Shown: positions 7,745 through 18,400, counted from the first letter of the stretch. The stretch: 42,038 bases of DNA from Candidatus Aenigmatarchaeota archaeon (GCA_039091335.1 JAWCME010000001.1:76024-118061); one strand, 5' to 3'. Numbers and translations: made by a program. The notes: generated from the sequence alone by a model not told the origin.

Positions 7745-7822
7745 TTTAAATTTCTCTTCTACTTACTTTTTACCAGGAAAAAAAGAATAAATGCTGTTTC
7801 TTTGCTATAAAAAAATTCAAGA

Positions 7823-7859
7823 ACTACCATAGGATGGTTGTTTATCAAGGTCAGGCAAC
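7823..7859 (-). other. 3' arm of pre-23S processing stem (BHB)
   Basis: GACCU UGAU AAA CAACCAUCCUAUGGUAGU pairs with the 5' arm at 11066-11102. Confidence 0.92.
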
Positions 7860-8024
7860 CTCAGGCTTTTAGTGGCAGCCAGCTGAGTACCTCGCTCGAA
7901 AGCTTGGTACTTACACTGCTGCTCTATCAAGCTTGTAGTCTACAAGGGCCTTTGTCGCTCTTCCGCTCCTTTCGGAGCAGTTGAGCGATTGGCTGTCTAT
8001 TTTTCCGGATGGCTTCGTCCTTAG

Positions 8025-8062
8025 TTAGACAAGTATAGCACTTAGTTTAAGTGCTATACTTT
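8025..8062 (-). other. 23S BHB intron, 38 nt, ~2754/2755
   Basis: Central helix AGGC/GUCU, bulges AUA and AAC, 14-bp intron stem; removal restores GCAUCUAAG. Confidence 0.9.
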
Positions 8063-8067
8063 ATGCC

Positions 8068-8098
8068 TTCCTGCTAATGGAGTTTAAACTCCATTAGT
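8068..8098 (-). other. 23S BHB intron, 31 nt, ~2749/2750
   Basis: Central helix CCUG/CAGG, bulges AAA and AAG, 9-bp stem; removal restores CCUGAAGGCAU. Confidence 0.9.
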
Positions 8099-8229
8099 TT
8101 CAGGACTTATCCATGATGGCGTGGCTGCCCGGCTGCAATCACAGCCGGTACACTAGAGGCCACGGATGGGTGTTCCTTTCGTACTCACCCATCCTTCCGG
8201 TCAGACAGCCAGCACCTCGAGTAGATAGC

Positions 8230-8263
<34 letters not shown>

Positions 8264-8362
8264 AATGTTCCCCTTTAATCAGTGGACACCTGCACCCTTG
8301 GCTGCTACTGCACAGCCAGGAGGGGGAAAGCCGACAGCGACGCACCAACGCGCCGGGTCAAT

Positions 8363-8399
8363 TTATCTCGCTTCTGGGAATCGAAGACTCCATAAAGCT
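8363..8399 (-). other. 23S intron, 37 nt, ~2477/2478 (H89), relaxed BHB
   Basis: Removal restores GUCCACAUUGAC; central helix GUCC/AGAU has one mismatch. Confidence 0.8.
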
Positions 8400-8571
8400 G
8401 TGGACTTTCACCGGCCACGGGCCCATTATCCCCGAGGTAGCTTTTCTGATACCGCTCACTCCCATCAAGGGAAATGAACGTCTCGTTAGCCCATGCTTTC
8501 GCAGCTGGACTTCTCGCTTTGTGAAGTCCAGTCAGGCTGGCTTTTGCGCTTACACTCTACTCAGGATTTCT

Positions 8572-8657
8572 TTAGGGTGATAGAAGTTAATTCATTAGCT
8601 ACCTCACTTCTCATCTTAAATCAATCTGGAGCAGTATAATCATTCAACTTCTATCAT
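8572..8657 (-). other. 23S BHB intron, 86 nt, ~2306/2307 (H84), containing box C/D motifs
   Basis: Central helix AGGG/CCCU, 11-bp stem UGAUAGAAGUU/AACUUCUAUCA; removal restores GGGUCAGAAAUCC. Confidence 0.92.
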
Positions 8658-9662
8658 GACCCTGATGAGCCAACCTTTGGGCACCCTTGATCTCTTGTCA
8701 AGGGTGTACCGCCCCAGCCGAACTGCCCGCCAGATGCTGTCCTCTTTCGAGTTAGCGATTCGGTTGAGGAGGGGTGGTGTTACACTTTCCTCTCAGCTTT
8801 TGCCCGGAGGCTAAGCCTAATAGCGAGTACCACCTACGCTCTGCAACCGCAACCGAATCGCAACATCAAGCTGCAGTAAAGCTCTACGGGGTCTTCGTTT
8901 CCCACTCGAGGTCTCTGGCCTATTCACCAGAACAGCAATTTCGCTGGGTCCCAGCCTAGGACAGCGAGGAAGTCGTTACGCCATTGAGACGGGCCGTCAA
9001 TTAAACGGCAAGGGATTACGCTACTTTACGACGGTCAGAGTTACCGCCGCCGTTTACCGGGGCTTCTTCCTGTTGGACCAGGCTTTCACACACCGGCACT
9101 GGGCAGGCATCAGAGACTGTACACATGCTTTCGCACTTGCAGTCTCCTATGTTTTTGTTAAACAGTCGCTTCCTCCTTGTCACTGCGACCTGCTGTCCCA
9201 CCCCACTTGCCCTGCTTAGCAGGACTTGTGGTTAGAGACTACAGGCACCCCTTCTAGCTAACATACGGGGCCAATTTGCCGATTTCCCTAGGCTGGGTTC
9301 TCCCAACAGGCCATTGCCTTCTCAGCAAGCATACCTGTGTCGGTTCTCGGTACGGTCATGAAGGATCCGTTGAAGTTCTTTTTCACGGACTCCAGGAATC
9401 GGTCGAACTTCGCATACGCGAAGCTATTCCCACTTTCATCTGCTTCTCCTCTTTATGAGACTCCACAGACTTCAGTGGTTAACTTGCGTCGACCTATCCC
9501 GAAGTGTCAGAACTTCAACTTGCGTTGCCGCATGTACCTTCATGGCATGGGAATATTAACCCATCTCCCATTTGACCGGTTCGGTTAAGATCGGTCTTAG
9601 GACCGGCTAACCGCCAGTTGACGAACATTGCTGGCAAACCCTTATGCTTTAGGCCGTTGGGA

Positions 9663-9679
9663 ATTGAGGATAAATATCT
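9663..9679 (-). other. 23S BHB mini-intron, 17 nt, ~1287/1288
   Basis: Central helix UGAG/CUCA, bulges AAA and AUU, stem GAU/AUC, exon stem GUUGGG/CCCAAC; restores loop UGAGAAU. Confidence 0.88.
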
Positions 9680-11065
9680 TTCTCACCCAACTATGCTGCT
9701 ACTCATGGCAGGATCTTCATTTCCTTGCGGTCCACTTGTTCTTACGAACAAGCTTCTACCCACAAGGAACGCCTTCTTACCCTTGCTTTCGCAAGCTTGG
9801 GTATCGGTAACCAGCTTAGTCCCTTCCATTTTCAGGGCAGAAACTCTCGGCGGGTAAGCTGTTACGCACTTTTTAACTGATGGCTGCTTCTAAGCCTACA
9901 GTCCCGCTGTCTAAGAGTTTCCACTCCCTTCTTCACTTAGCTGGTATTTTGGGACCTTAACCCAAGTCCGGGTTGTTTCCCTCTCGGAGGCTGAGCTTAC
10001 CCCAACCCCCTCACTCCGGCCTTCTAAGACGCTAACAGATTCTGAGTTGGACAGGATGGCTGAGCCTTTCGGCCCTTCACCACCCAATCCGTAGCTTTAC
10101 CCTGTTAGCTGTCTCCGGCCAGGCTGTACTGAGGTACATTTCAGAAGGAACCAGCTATCACCAGTTTCGATTGGCTTTTCACCCCTAACCCAAGGTTACC
10201 CGAGTGATTGGACCTCAACATCGGTATCGGGCTTCCATTTCGCTTTCGCGAAACTTCACCCTACCTTGGGTTAGATCAACTGGCTTCTGGTCTTATCCCA
10301 GCGACTTCAGGCACTTTCATACCCAGCACCACGCTCTTAATGAGCTACGTGCTTTTCGCTTTCGCTACGGATCCGGAGCTTAAACTCCTTATCCTCGCCG
10401 CTGAGATAAACTCCCTGCCCCGTTTTTCAGAACGGATGCTAGGACACTGTAAGCTGCTCTTAGTACTATTTCCTCTCGGAAATTTCCTTCAGAGCAGCAC
10501 CTTTCATGCCCTAGCTGACTATCTCCATCTTGGTTTCAGGCTCTTTTCACCTCCCTTTCGGGATACTTTTCAGCTTTCTTTCACAATACTATTGCGCTAT
10601 CGGACTTGGTTAGTATTTAGGGTTGGATGTTGATGCCACCCAGATTCCTGCTCCATATCCAAGGAACAGTACTCAGGATGCTTGGCATTTTCCTTCTCTC
10701 CTTCCTCTACGAGGCTATCACTCTCTAAGGCGGTTCTTTCCAGAACACTTCGAGTCGGAGAGTTAGGAAAGACCCAAGTCCTACAACTCCACATCCTTTC
10801 TTTCTTTTCGAAAGAAAGTTCGGTTTGCCCTTTACCCCTTTCACTCGCCGTTACTCAGGGTATCTCAATTGATTTCTTTTCCTGCGCCTACTAAGATGCT
10901 TCACTTCGGCGCGTTCCTCTCCCTTTCGGGATAGCTCTTTAAGAGCTGGGAATCCCATTGATAGATCCTGGGGTCAATTCCTCCATGCGGATAACCCAGG
11001 CTTATCGCAACTTGGTACGTACTTCATCAGCTAACCAAGCCAAGCCATCCACCAAGTGGAGTGGT

Positions 11066-11102
11066 GTTGCCAGACCTCTTTGACCAACCATCCTATGGTA
11101 GT
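11066..11102 (-). other. 5' arm of pre-23S processing stem (BHB)
   Basis: ACUACCAUAGGAUGGUUG GUCA AAG AGGUC; 18-bp outer helix with 7823-7840. Confidence 0.92.
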
Positions 11103-11114
11103 TTCATCTTTATT

Positions 11115-11176
11115 GGTTTCATATAGACAGTTCGCTCTTCATAATTTCAGACGCTGTCAGTTAAATCATCAACCTC
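11115..11176 (-). ncRNA. Putative dual-guide box C/D sRNA in the 23S leader (predicted targets U2504, A2600)
   Basis: C UUGAUGA (11166-72), D' CUGA (11147-50), C' AUGAAGA (11136-42), D AUGA (11119-22). Guides CUGACAGCG and CGAACUGUCU are complementary to 23S 8331-8339 and 8233-8242. Confidence 0.7.
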
Positions 11177-11214
11177 AGCTCTTCACCCCATACACTTGTA
11201 AGGAGTTGCATCAT

Positions 11215-11275
11215 ATGCTCGCAAGGTGTCCATTTCTTCATGTTTTATCAGAAGAAATGAAAAGCTCATCGCTAA
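11215..11275 (-). ncRNA. Putative box C/D sRNA in the 23S leader (predicted target U2552)
   Basis: D' CUGA (11248-51), C' AUGAAGA (11235-41). Guide UGGACACCU (11224-32) is complementary to 8283-8291. C box GCGAUGA and D box GCGA are degenerate. Confidence 0.55.
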
Positions 11276-11341
11276 ACAAAAGGCCGATGCTACATTTAAG
11301 CAGACATAATGACACCGGCAAAATATTATTTTATTTAATAA

Positions 11342-11349
11342 TTTATAAA
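11342..11349 (-). promoter_or_regulatory. Candidate TATA box of the 23S transcript
   Basis: TTTATAAA about 30 nt upstream of the start of the GC-richer leader (GCCGGUG, ~11319). Confidence 0.55.
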
Positions 11350-11462
11350 GATTACTGTTCTTGGTTTTAATGCTACTATATAAATGGCATCACATAGGAT
11401 GTTGGTCTGTTAATAGACACAGCATGCTTTATTTTGACTATGCACATAACAACAAAATACTT

Positions 11463-12122
11463 TTAGTCAATAAGCAAGGGTTTAATGATTAAATTTTGTC
11501 CTGCCCAATAAACAGTTCCATCATTATCAATTAGATACTTTATTTCTGACTCAGTTTTCTTCCAATAAATTTCTGTTCCCTGTGGACAATACTTGTCAAG
11601 ATAGTTTTTTATTTTTTCATAATTCATTTCCTGTATAATTTCTACAGGAAATGAAATTATTTGACCTGGCCCAAGTCCTTTACATTTTATTCGTTCAACA
11701 AAAACCCCTTCCTGCCTTTTCTCCCACTTTTCATATTTTGAAGTTGCAGGAACAACAAAAACATAAGCTGATTTATTAGGTCCCAGCCAATATTTGTCTC
11801 CATTCCAACCTCTTTTTTCTACAGACACAAAATCTTCAAAAAAATTCATTTCCTGAATTGCTTCTGCTTCACTTAATTCCCTATGTTTAAGTAATTCTTC
11901 TTTTGTTTTTTGTATTATTTCATTGAAGTATCGATTAAAAACCATAAGCGCTTCACTTTCTGAAGTGATGGTTGAATTGGAATAGAAAACTGGAATAGCA
12001 GAGAGAACAAGATAACCTCCTCTTCCAGAAGGTTTAGGTAACATGAAATATGAAGTTAATAAAATTGCTGAAAAAATTACTACCAAACCCAAAATTAAAA
12101 TTTTTGTTCTCATAATTCTCAA
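11463..12122 (-). CDS. Hypothetical membrane-anchored/secreted protein
   Basis: N-terminal hydrophobic helix KILILGLVVIFSAILLTSYFML; N-glycosylation sequon. Confidence 0.7.
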   Translation of the reverse strand: MRIMRTKILILGLVVIFSAILLTSYFMLPKPSGRGGYLVLSAIPVFYSNSTITSESEALMVFNRYFNEIIQKTKEELLKHRELSEAEAIQEMNFFEDFVSVEKRGWNGDKYWLGPNKSAYVFVVPATSKYEKWEKRQEGVFVERIKCKGLGPGQIISFPVEIIQEMNYEKIKNYLDKYCPQGTEIYWKKTESEIKYLIDNDGTVYWAGQNLIIKPLLID

Positions 12123-16642: not shown

Positions 16643-16699
16643 TTTTTCTTAAGGAGGTGATCCAGCCGCACGTTCCCGTACGGCTACCTTGTGGCGACT

Positions 16700-16796
16700 T
16701 TAGGCTCTTGGAAGCTCATAATAAATCAATTCACCTCCAACTCATCATTAATCAGAGTCAAGCCATTTTCTCATATTATTTTAGAGCTTCCAAAAT
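16700..16796 (-). other. 16S BHB intron, 97 nt, between A1492 and A1493, containing a full box C/D set
   Basis: Central helix GGGC/GCCU, 12-bp stem UUUUGGAAGCUC/GAGCUUCCAAGA; removal restores GGGGCUAAGUCG. Confidence 0.92.
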
Positions 16797-16869
16797 TAGC
16801 CCCTCTCGCAAAACCCAAACTCGACTTTCCCAAAAAGAGAAAGCCTTGTTTGGGTTTCACTCGATTGGC

Positions 16870-16906
<37 letters not shown>

Positions 16907-16915
16907 GACGAACGA

Positions 16916-16959
16916 ATCCACGCAATATGAAGCATTTCCAGCCTCTTTTCATAATTGCA
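16916..16959 (-). other. 16S BHB intron, 44 nt, ~1363/1364
   Basis: Central helix UCAU/GUGG, exon helix AACG/CGUU, stem GCAA/UUGC. Confidence 0.88.
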
Positions 16960-17414
16960 TGATGACGTTCGCCTACTAGGGATTCCGGCTTCACGAGGAC
17001 GAGTTACAGCCCTCGATCTGAACTGAGCATGCTTTTAGGGGATTAGCTTCTCCTTTCGGAGTTGCATCCCATTGTGGCATGCATTGTGGGTCGCGTGTAG
17101 CCCAGGAGATTCGGGGCATACGGACCTACCGTCGCCCACACCTTCCTCCCACTTATCGCGGGCAGTCTCCCATGAGTGCACTTCCTCCGGAGAGGAAGTT
17201 AGCAACATGGGATGTGGGTCTCGCTCGTTAACCGACTTAACGGCACGCCTCACGGTACGAGCTGACGATGGCCATGCACCACCTCTCAGCTTGTCTGGTA
17301 AGCCCTTCAGACTGACCCTCATCCTGCTGTCAACCCTGGTAAGATTCCCGGCGTTGAATCCAATTAAACCGCAGCCTCCACCCCTTGTGTGCTCCCCCGC
17401 CAATTCCCTTAAGT

Positions 17415-17470
17415 TAGGTGGAAGAAGTGGTATGTTTATATTAAATTTTTAAAAAAACACCACTTCCTCT
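17415..17470 (-). other. 16S BHB intron, 56 nt, 908/909
   Basis: Central helix GGUG/CACC, exon helix AAG/CUU, 11-bp stem; restores GUGAAACUUAA. Confidence 0.92.
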
Positions 17471-17581
17471 TTCACCCTTGCGGGTATACTCCCCAGGTGG
17501 CCCGCTTAACACCTACGCTCCGGCACTGCAAGCTCCCGAGAAGCCTGCAACACCAAGCGGGCATCGTTTACGGCTAGGACT

Positions 17582-17662
17582 TTCCCGCACGAGTAGGAAA
17601 TCCTAGCTTGTTGGGTCTTAAATTTCTTCATATTTTATCAGAAGATACTCCCAACCTCGTGT
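17582..17662 (-). other. 16S BHB intron, 81 nt, 801/802, with internal D'/C' motif
   Basis: Central helix CCCG/CGGG, stem CACGAG/CUCGUG; restores CCGGUAGUCC. Confidence 0.92.
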
Positions 17663-18400
17663 ACCGGGGTATCTAATCCCGATCGCTCCCCTAGCTTTCG
17701 TCCCTCACAGTCAGACCCGTTCCAGCAAGACGCCTTCGCCACAGGTTGTCCCCTTTGGATTAAAGGATTTAACCCCTACCCAAAGAGTACATCTTGCCTC
17801 TCCCGGTCTCAAGCCCGAAAGTATCCTCAGCAAGCCCTCCAGTTTACTGGAGGATTTCACCAAGGACTTTTCAGGCCTGCTACGGACTCTTTAGACCCAA
17901 TAATCGTGACCATCACTTGGAGTGCGGGTATTACCGCGGTGGCTGGCACCCGTCTTACCCACTCCTTATTCGCCTTCCTGTTTTCAGAAGGCAAAAGCTC
18001 TTGCAGAGCAAGAGCACTCCGGGTTCCCTTATCTCGCGTTAGCGAATTGTAAAGTTTTCGCGCCTGCTGCGTTCCGTAGAACCTGGACTCATGTCTCAGA
18101 GTCCATCTCCGGGCTCCTACTTCCATAGCCCGTAGGCGTTATCGCTTTGTTGGTTCGTTACACCAACAACAGGCTGATACCATGCAGTCCCATCCTTAGC
18201 CGCAATTGCTTTTGTTGTTGGAACCTTCCAGTATCCAACAACTATGGAGTATTGAGCTCAGTTTCCCGAGTTTATCCTCCAGCTAAGGGTAGGTTGACTG
18301 CACATTACGGAGCAGTTCGCCGAGGGCTTTCCCCTCTCGACTCGCATGGCTTAGTCGAACCCGGATAGCAATGGTCTCTGGCGGGATCAACCAGAATTTT

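Follow-up and report, generated by a model that had tools for sequence, protein, structure and literature searches.

The 2'-O-methylated uridine of the A-loop, Um2552, is among the few rRNA modifications shared by all domains of life. Bacteria form it with a stand-alone enzyme, eukaryotes and many archaea with guide RNAs. The product of RlmE/FtsJ (RrmJ) is likewise Um2552, but this is a protein-only, stand-alone methyltransferase, and no convincing homologue of it was found in the archaeal order considered here. In archaeal pre-rRNA spacers, kink-turn or C/D-like motifs that bind L7Ae and are released by bulge-helix-bulge cleavage were reportedly described by Tang et al. in 2002; those motifs are not known to carry conserved antisense guides with +5 geometry.

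Of the box C/D RNAs described, N. equitans sRNA10 (Randau 2012; Neq sR10 in Dennis et al. 2015) likewise comes from a DPANN archaeon. In its published description it carries the guide AGUGAACACCCU followed by CUGA, with the first U of the A-loop as predicted target (GGGGUmGUUCACC), and the core of this guide, GUGAACACC, is the core found in other orders of Aenigmatarchaeota. Neq sR10 also pairs near helix 93, according to Dennis et al. 2015. It differs from the locus reported here in being a free-standing gene between NEQ311 and NEQ314, for which the supplementary table gives no placement at a 23S flank, and, as described there, in having canonical boxes and its A-loop guide at D', whereas the leader unit has it at D. 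Two other box C/D guides, Pyrococcus abyssi sR25 and yeast snR52, serve the same near-universal methylation of the A-loop (PMC2584109); they are likened to the present guide by target, not by sequence, and differ in being described as separate, trans-acting small RNAs.

Guides embedded in a precursor are known from tRNA introns. The guide in the Haloferax volcanii pre-tRNA-Trp intron and the C/D sRNA in the N. equitans tRNA-Met intron each lie within the precursor of their own substrate and are removed at a bulge-helix-bulge (PMC7994747, PMC2584109). These are intronic and their substrate is a tRNA, whereas the guides reported here lie in the 5' flank of the 23S rRNA, about 2.8 kb from their targets. 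For the tRNA-Trp guide, action in cis or in trans is unsettled (PMC2584109). rRNA leaders are absent from the reviewed genomic contexts of archaeal C/D genes (PMC7994747), and in the literature searched C/D guides are reported neither from an archaeal 23S leader nor from Aenigmatarchaeota. The type of guide is known; what is new is its location within the pre-23S transcript. We put at roughly 80% the probability that the leader of this 23S precursor carries two box C/D guide units aimed at its own catalytic centre.

The 23S leader and its box C/D units

The window, a stretch of 42,038 nt from a Candidatus Aenigmatarchaeota archaeon (GCA_039091335.1, JAWCME010000001.1:76024-118061), belongs to a genome assembled in 29 contigs, which amounts to about 570 kb, is 87% complete and has about 32% G+C (Aenigmatarchaeota, DPANN). 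The gap of 5.5 kb between the 16S and 23S rRNA genes is occupied by ORFs. The ORF upstream of the 23S gene lies at 11463-12122, and a TATA-like box stands between the two. The features framing the leader are:

7849-11076, minus strand: archaeal 23S rRNA (Rfam)
16652-18397, minus strand: 16S rRNA (Rfam)
11342-11349, minus strand: TATA-like box UUUAUAAA, read from the sequence; similarity to relatives starts about here
11085-11103, minus strand: 5' strand of the 23S processing stem, complementary to 7822-7840
7822-7840, minus strand: trailer side (3' strand) of the 23S processing stem, complementary to 11085-11103
about 11077-11084, minus strand: bulge-helix-bulge motif at the 23S 5' end, a by-eye reading

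Transcription likely starts near G11319, as judged solely by the spacing from the TATA-like box, and with this start the leader would comprise about 243 nt (about 11319-11077). Its identity to the leaders of other genera of the family is 76-82%, which is remarkable for a spacer, and a 21-base word from it matches almost solely 'Candidatus Aenigmatarchaeota' assemblies. A plus-strand ORF at 11056-11370 was discarded as a gene, since among the relatives the boxes are constant, but loops and non-guide spacers vary freely and have indels of 1, 2, 5 and 11 nt.

At the base of the processing stem, a conserved GAUGA occurs directly 5' of the stem (11104-11111, minus strand) and CUUGA just 3' of it, in the trailer (7815-7821, minus strand); the 16S leader has UGAUGAAACC at the equivalent place (18420-18411). 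The GAUGA/CUUGA combination may be a C/D-like motif, of a register that does not fit a canonical kink-turn.

A sequence-only reading had described repeated CUGA, AUGAAGA and UGAUGA boxes in this leader as tandem box C/D guides. All of these boxes were found on the minus strand, and their grouping into two units, together with two further conserved elements, is as follows:

11217-11273, minus strand: box C/D unit 1, parsed in 22 genomes
11115-11174, minus strand: box C/D unit 2, parsed in 19 genomes
11283-11319, minus strand: conserved 5' hairpin GCCGGUG...CAUCGGC, kept in relatives, which includes an A-loop-like GGUGUC (11311-11316)
11179-11212, minus strand: middle element GAUGCAAC-hairpin-GUGAAGAG, conserved phylum-wide, with a covarying hairpin

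Unit 1 reads AGC / GAU-GA-GCU / UUUCAUUUCUU / CUGA-UAAAACA-UGAAGA / AAUGGACACCUU / GCGA / GC, and unit 2 reads GGUU / GAU-GA-UUU / AACUGACAGCGU / CUGA-AAUUA-UGAAGA / GCGAACUGUCUAU / AUGA / AACC. The register of the boxes was corrected accordingly to terminal stem, GAU as a 3-nt bulge, GA of the tandem G.A pairs, and 3 nt, which makes AUGAGCU or AUGAUUU the C box and GCGA or AUGA the D box. Compared with the consensus RUGAUGA/CUGA, the G.A core is kept and the outer boxes C and D are degenerate beyond it; the earlier caveat that some boxes are degenerate applies to the positions outside the G.A pairs. The internal motif is conserved and the same in both units, with a canonical CUGA as D', a loop of 5-7 nt and UGAAGA as C'; some relatives have a hairpin inserted in the C'/D' loop. 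Unit 1 has spacers of 11 and 12 nt and unit 2 of 12 and 13 nt, with 10-14 nt in the relatives, lengths that match the archaeal C/D geometry of about 12 nt. The terminal stem of unit 1 has only 2 bp in the genome of the window.

Both units display the terminal kink-turn of archaeal C/D sRNAs (stem / GAU / GA ... nnGA / stem), and comparison of the relatives, which are metagenome bins and for which some kink-turn readings were made by eye, disclosed covariation of its stems in 19-22 genomes, which backs the proposal of tandem units. The four positions of the unit 2 terminal stem form pairs in 19/19, 19/19, 19/19 and 16/19 genomes, and both sides have changed, giving U-A, C-G, G-C and U.G pairs; for the variable ones, the observed value is attained by shuffled controls with a frequency of at most 0.001. 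The 4b-4n pair is formed in all 19 copies of unit 2 and in 20/22 copies of unit 1 (C-G, U-A, A-U, G-C). The terminal stems of unit 1 are exchanged wholesale, as AGC/GCU, GUGGC/GCCAC, AGGAC/GUCCU and UUUGGC/GCCAAA, and CAAGGC/GCCUUG is a further whole-stem swap. An Rfam scan assigned the leader to no family at the gathering threshold; the best matches of unit 2, sR12 with 17.1 bits (gathering 38) and sR36 with 14.2 bits (gathering 55), have E values of about 1, which is chance level in a scan with E up to 10.

In one genus (genome G005, locus L014) the boxes of unit 1 are lost from the leader, and a search of that genome for the C'-guide-D pattern found no trans copy of the A-loop guide. The same leader keeps a degenerate GGGCAUCU, for which pairing with the A-loop is still possible by means of two G.U pairs.

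The middle element takes the form AUGAUGC-hairpin-(U/C)UGA in other orders (L239, L236, L237, L238) and, from its motifs, may be a third kink-turn hairpin that lacks a guide. Neither for it nor for the 5' hairpin were complements found in 16S or 23S rRNA.

Probable guides and their predicted targets in the peptidyl-transferase centre

E. coli numbers were transferred by pairwise alignment with rrlH, in which window positions 8288, 8336 and 8240 correspond to U2552, U2504 and A2600, respectively. The guides and the 23S segments that they match are:

11223-11234, minus strand: D guide of unit 1, AAUGGACACCUU, matching the A-loop over 9 bp, +5 opposite U2552
11123-11135, minus strand: D guide of unit 2, GCGAACUGUCUAU, matching 2598-2607 in the helix 93 strand over 10 bp, +5 at A2600
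11151-11162, minus strand: D' guide of unit 2, AACUGACAGCGU, matching 2501-2509 over 9 bp, one of them G.U, +5 at U2504
8283-8291, minus strand: target 1, A-loop AGGUGUCCA (2549-2557)
8233-8242, minus strand: target 2, AGACAGUUCG (2598-2607)
8331-8339, minus strand: target 3, CGCUGUCGG (2501-2509)

The three complementarities to 23S rRNA noticed in the sequence-only reading, of 9, 10 and 9 bp, were all verified. UGGACACCU forms 9 bp with the A-loop AGGUGUCCA and places +5 at U2552 (8288), CGAACUGUCU forms 10 bp with AGACAGUUCG and places +5 at A2600 (8240), and CUGACAGCG forms 9 bp, one of them G.U, with CGCUGUCGG and places +5 at U2504 (8336). In all three the complement adjoins box D or D' and the target lies opposite +5, as in archaeal C/D guides. 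Shuffled guides find an equally long, +5-including match somewhere in 16S plus 23S rRNA in 46-153 of 500 trials; a match of 9-10 bp in one genome is hence not beyond chance, and the case rests on the relatives. There, a similarity beyond chance is indicated by conservation, by covariation of the kink-turns and by covariation of guide and target. The D' spacer of unit 1, UUUCAUUUCUU, was rejected as a guide: its best match, 10 bp with one G.U at window position 9721, is at chance level (153/500) and is not conserved.

The A-loop guide is invariably CACC followed by 2 nt and nnGA, so that an A stands opposite U2552 at +5 in 22/22 genomes; of the other orders, eight genomes were checked and all keep the +5 geometry too. 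Guide and A-loop occur in three fully Watson-Crick combinations, GGACACC/GGUGUCC (15 genomes), GGGCACC/GGUGCCC (seven) and GAACACC/GGUGUUC (G012). On the 23S tree the guide changes between A and G three times, and the loop changes between U and C in step each time; further events are seen in G001 and in G012, the latter at a second site. Independent double changes number at least four. Other orders of the phylum have the guide GUGAACACC with the loop GGUGUUCAC, and G185 has UGGACACCC with GGGUGUCCA.

Across 29 genomes the pair types are, site by site, G-C in 23 and A-U in 6; A-U in 21, G-C in 7 and one mismatch; and U-A in 22, C-G in 2 and five mismatches. Cells changed on both sides number 16, against 5.0 +/- 1.8 in shuffles, a value reached in 0/500 of them, and guide and A-loop pair at 80%, as opposed to 36-49% when the partners are slid against each other. 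An exception is genus g20 (G019, L189), with an A.C mismatch at guide position 7; L189, whose D' guide is identical to that of G019, has the mismatched guide and the A-loop on a single contig. The constant +5 register, together with compensatory changes of guide and target across 29 genomes, therefore strengthens the proposal of a guide for U2552.

The pattern of box C', guide and box D is matched in 65 of 301 genomes of the phylum, while the reversed control matches about 25 genomes; the genome of the window holds a single copy. In each of the 11 genomes checked from seven further families the guide is part of the 16S-23S spacer, 35-190 nt ahead of the 23S 5' end, and at 12 further loci of the order it lies 100-310 nt upstream of 23S. 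Eight loci (L200, L201, L203, L215, L221-L223, L228) were considered as trans copies and dismissed: they have no adjoining 23S, and the four that were read resemble coding sequence. A 15-base pattern searched in all public genomes proved too short, as it gave random bacterial matches and two archaeal matches that are coding sequence. At L233 (G083) and L235 (G095) the A-loop guide is found as a minimal unit of about 30 nt without C'/D', which is unusual for archaeal C/D RNPs; it consists of a stem, AUGAUGA, a 12-nt guide, UUGA and the stem.

In unit 2, the guide directed to helix 93 (CGAACUGUC, about A2600) is conserved order-wide. CGA(A/G)CUGU is present in all 19 copies of unit 2 and also as the D' guide of a single unit in G027, G032 and G039, which belong to another family of the order. 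These three genomes carry both conserved guides in one RNA, composed of a C box, CGAACUGUCUCU, CUGA, a loop, UGAAGA, GGACACCUU and UUGA. The +5 position falls at A2600 in 13/19 copies and in the D' versions, at C2601 in three and at G2599 in two. As the target is invariant, this guide cannot covary; what speaks for the guide proposed for about A2600 is its order-wide conservation, at D and D' positions alike. This part of 23S is known as a hot spot: for all six thermophiles that they studied, Dennis et al. predict a methylated nucleotide at the helix 93 base (E. coli C2606; PMC4644070).

The D' guide of unit 2 is less constant. CUGACAGCG is kept in 7/19 genomes, namely G000, G007, G014, G015 and G024, with variants in G001 and G023, and also at the extra loci L190, L192 and L193; in G023 the register is off by one nucleotide, and the other genera have unrelated sequence at this position. 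The complementarity of the proposed guide for U2504 stands, but its conservation is limited to seven of 19 genomes and shifted by one nucleotide in one genus, and the chances that it is a real guide are about even. L193 (NZ_JBMFOX010000068.1), a contig of 3 kb, has a leader and 23S of Aenigmatarchaeota type, and its label 'Candidatus Hadarchaeum sp.' is probably a binning error.

Two of the guides had been described as matching this organism's own unusual bases. The bases C2503, C2555 and A2557 are real, but they are common to most of the order and not private to this genome. The peptidyl-transferase region (8230-8445, minus strand) deviates from near-universal bases as A2503C, C2499G, A2497G, U2555C, C2551G and G2557A, and the closing pair of the A-loop becomes G.A in the 23S of the window. 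In many relatives the 23S gene is split by introns within this region, and BLAST matches are interrupted near E. coli positions 2585 and 2598, adjoining the predicted guide targets.

Possible action of the leader units and alternatives

The proteins of C/D particles are encoded in the genome: fibrillarin (249 bits), Nop5 (170 bits) and L7Ae (100 bits) all score above the Pfam cut-offs. In G000 they lie at C28:6648-7307 (fibrillarin), around C28:5766-6293 (Nop5) and at C20:425-700 (L7Ae). FtsJ/RlmE gave weak cross-matches only, of 20.9 bits in the genome of the window, which is below the cut-off, and of at most 37.5 bits in 41 genomes, so that no convincing RlmE was found in either. Motifs, covariation, position and proteins together uphold the earlier suggestion of cis-encoded guides, in the sense that they are encoded within the 23S leader.

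Judging from this architecture, L7Ae would bind each unit at two places, the terminal kink-turn and the internal CUGA/UGAAGA motif, while the leader is being transcribed, and Nop5 and fibrillarin would join the L7Ae-bound units. The 12-13-nt spacers upstream of D and D' would base-pair with the 23S peptidyl-transferase ring at three of its strands, and the nucleotide opposite the fifth guide position would become 2'-O-methylated; the predicted targets are U2552 for unit 1, about A2600 for the D guide of unit 2 and, less certainly, U2504 for its D' guide. Guide and substrate would be made one-for-one. Cleavage at the bulge-helix-bulge of the processing stem would free the leader, after which the protein-covered units could persist as small RNAs acting in trans, or be discarded.

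A more specific form of this scheme is conceivable, though less likely than not. The 23S precursor of Aenigmatarchaeota might guide its own modification through C/D particles borne by the leader (and here also by introns), acting co-transcriptionally and in cis; they would clamp 2501-2509, 2549-2557 and 2598-2607 until these are methylated, and removal of the leader at the bulge-helix-bulge would be coupled to correct folding of the catalytic centre. If this were true, it would amount to a built-in quality checkpoint, a prokaryotic counterpart of snoRNP-assisted assembly of the pre-ribosome without trans-acting guide genes.

The A-loop guide is here neither a separate gene nor intronic; it sits in the 5' flank of the 23S precursor and is kept there phylum-wide, in very small DPANN genomes. 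The arrangement provides one guide per substrate without a separate promoter, and would tie the supply of guide to rRNA transcription and to bulge-helix-bulge cleavage. It offers a natural system for the long-standing question of co-transcriptional C/D guiding in cis, debated for the tRNA-Trp intron, and suggests that annotation pipelines overlook functional small RNAs in rRNA spacers.

It is unlikely that the units are L7Ae-binding kink-turns for folding or processing only, with the antisense stretches acting as a built-in chaperone and no methyl transfer. The exact +5 geometry of the A-loop guide in 22 genomes and in eight from other orders would be hard to account for by such a role, as would the retention of fibrillarin and Nop5 in a genome of 570 kb, even if the degenerate box D, the 2-bp terminal stem of unit 1 and the 13-nt spacer of unit 2 are compatible with it. 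The one-nucleotide wobble in the register of the helix 93 guide, the minimal C-guide-D units without C'/D' in some orders (G083, G095), and the likeness of the middle element and of the AUGA beside the processing stem to further guide-less kink-turns also point towards a chaperone. Dual guides have been proposed as chaperones (PMC4644070), but the same work has U2552 as a recurrent archaeal C/D target, and no convincing RlmE was found here that would make Um2552 otherwise.

Less probable still is the view that GGACACC is mainly an intramolecular partner of the GGUGUC at the leader 5' end, or of a UGUCC-like stretch in the D' spacer, and that its match to the A-loop is incidental. The pairing with GGUGUC, raised as a caveat in the sequence-only reading, does appear in the minimum-energy fold of the leader (-64.3 kcal/mol, z = -1.9), in which 11311-11316 is paired to the guide of unit 1; the local 5' hairpin is seen in the centroid structure instead, and GCCGGUG/CAUCGGC is an equally good partner. 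GGUGUC is conserved, and many relatives have an A-loop-like UGUCC, UGCCC or UGUUC in the D' spacer of unit 1, after box C. The A-loop changes with the guide, however, and the 5' element does not: it stays GGUGUC where the guide is GGGCACC or GAACACC, and is therefore at most a transient anti-guide. In addition, G029 has a divergent 5' element yet an intact guide, and other orders keep the guide in the 16S-23S spacer, in flanks that, as far as examined, have no 5' hairpin.

That boxes and complementarities arose by chance in an A+U-rich spacer might be thought from the frequency with which shuffled guides reach 9-10 bp and from the equally many relaxed regex 'C/D architectures' in shuffled genomes, but it is refuted by the phylum-wide conservation and covariation, and its probability is negligible.

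Further C/D elements in the rRNA transcripts

Besides the leader, C/D units were recognized in rRNA introns. The 16S intron at 1492/1493 (16700-16796, minus strand) holds a textbook C/D unit closed by the stem GGAAGCUC/GAGCUUCC, in the order AUGAGAA, 12 nt, CUGA, UUA, AUGAUGA, 12 nt and UUGA. Its guides AAUGGCUUGACU and GUUGGAGGUGAA resemble GGUGGCUUGACU and GAGGAGGUGAUA of N. equitans sRNA13. A 23S intron (8572-8657, minus strand) contains a C/D unit with an 11-bp stem, in the order AUGAUUA, 12 nt, UUGA, loop, AUGAGAA, 12 nt and AUGA. With these intron-borne units and those of the leader, the clearest C/D guides of the genome all lie within rRNA transcripts. They cannot be called its only ones, because a regex scan of the 570-kb genome for C/D RNAs gave 4 real hits and 4-8 in shuffled genomes, the background thus equalling the real count.

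Lastly, a 24-nt element of CUGA, loop and UGAAGA is shared, with 23/24 identical positions, between a 16S intron (17622-17645, minus strand) and unit 1 of the leader (11232-11255, minus strand). The copy in the 16S intron is inserted after ...CCCCGGUA and stands without outer boxes.
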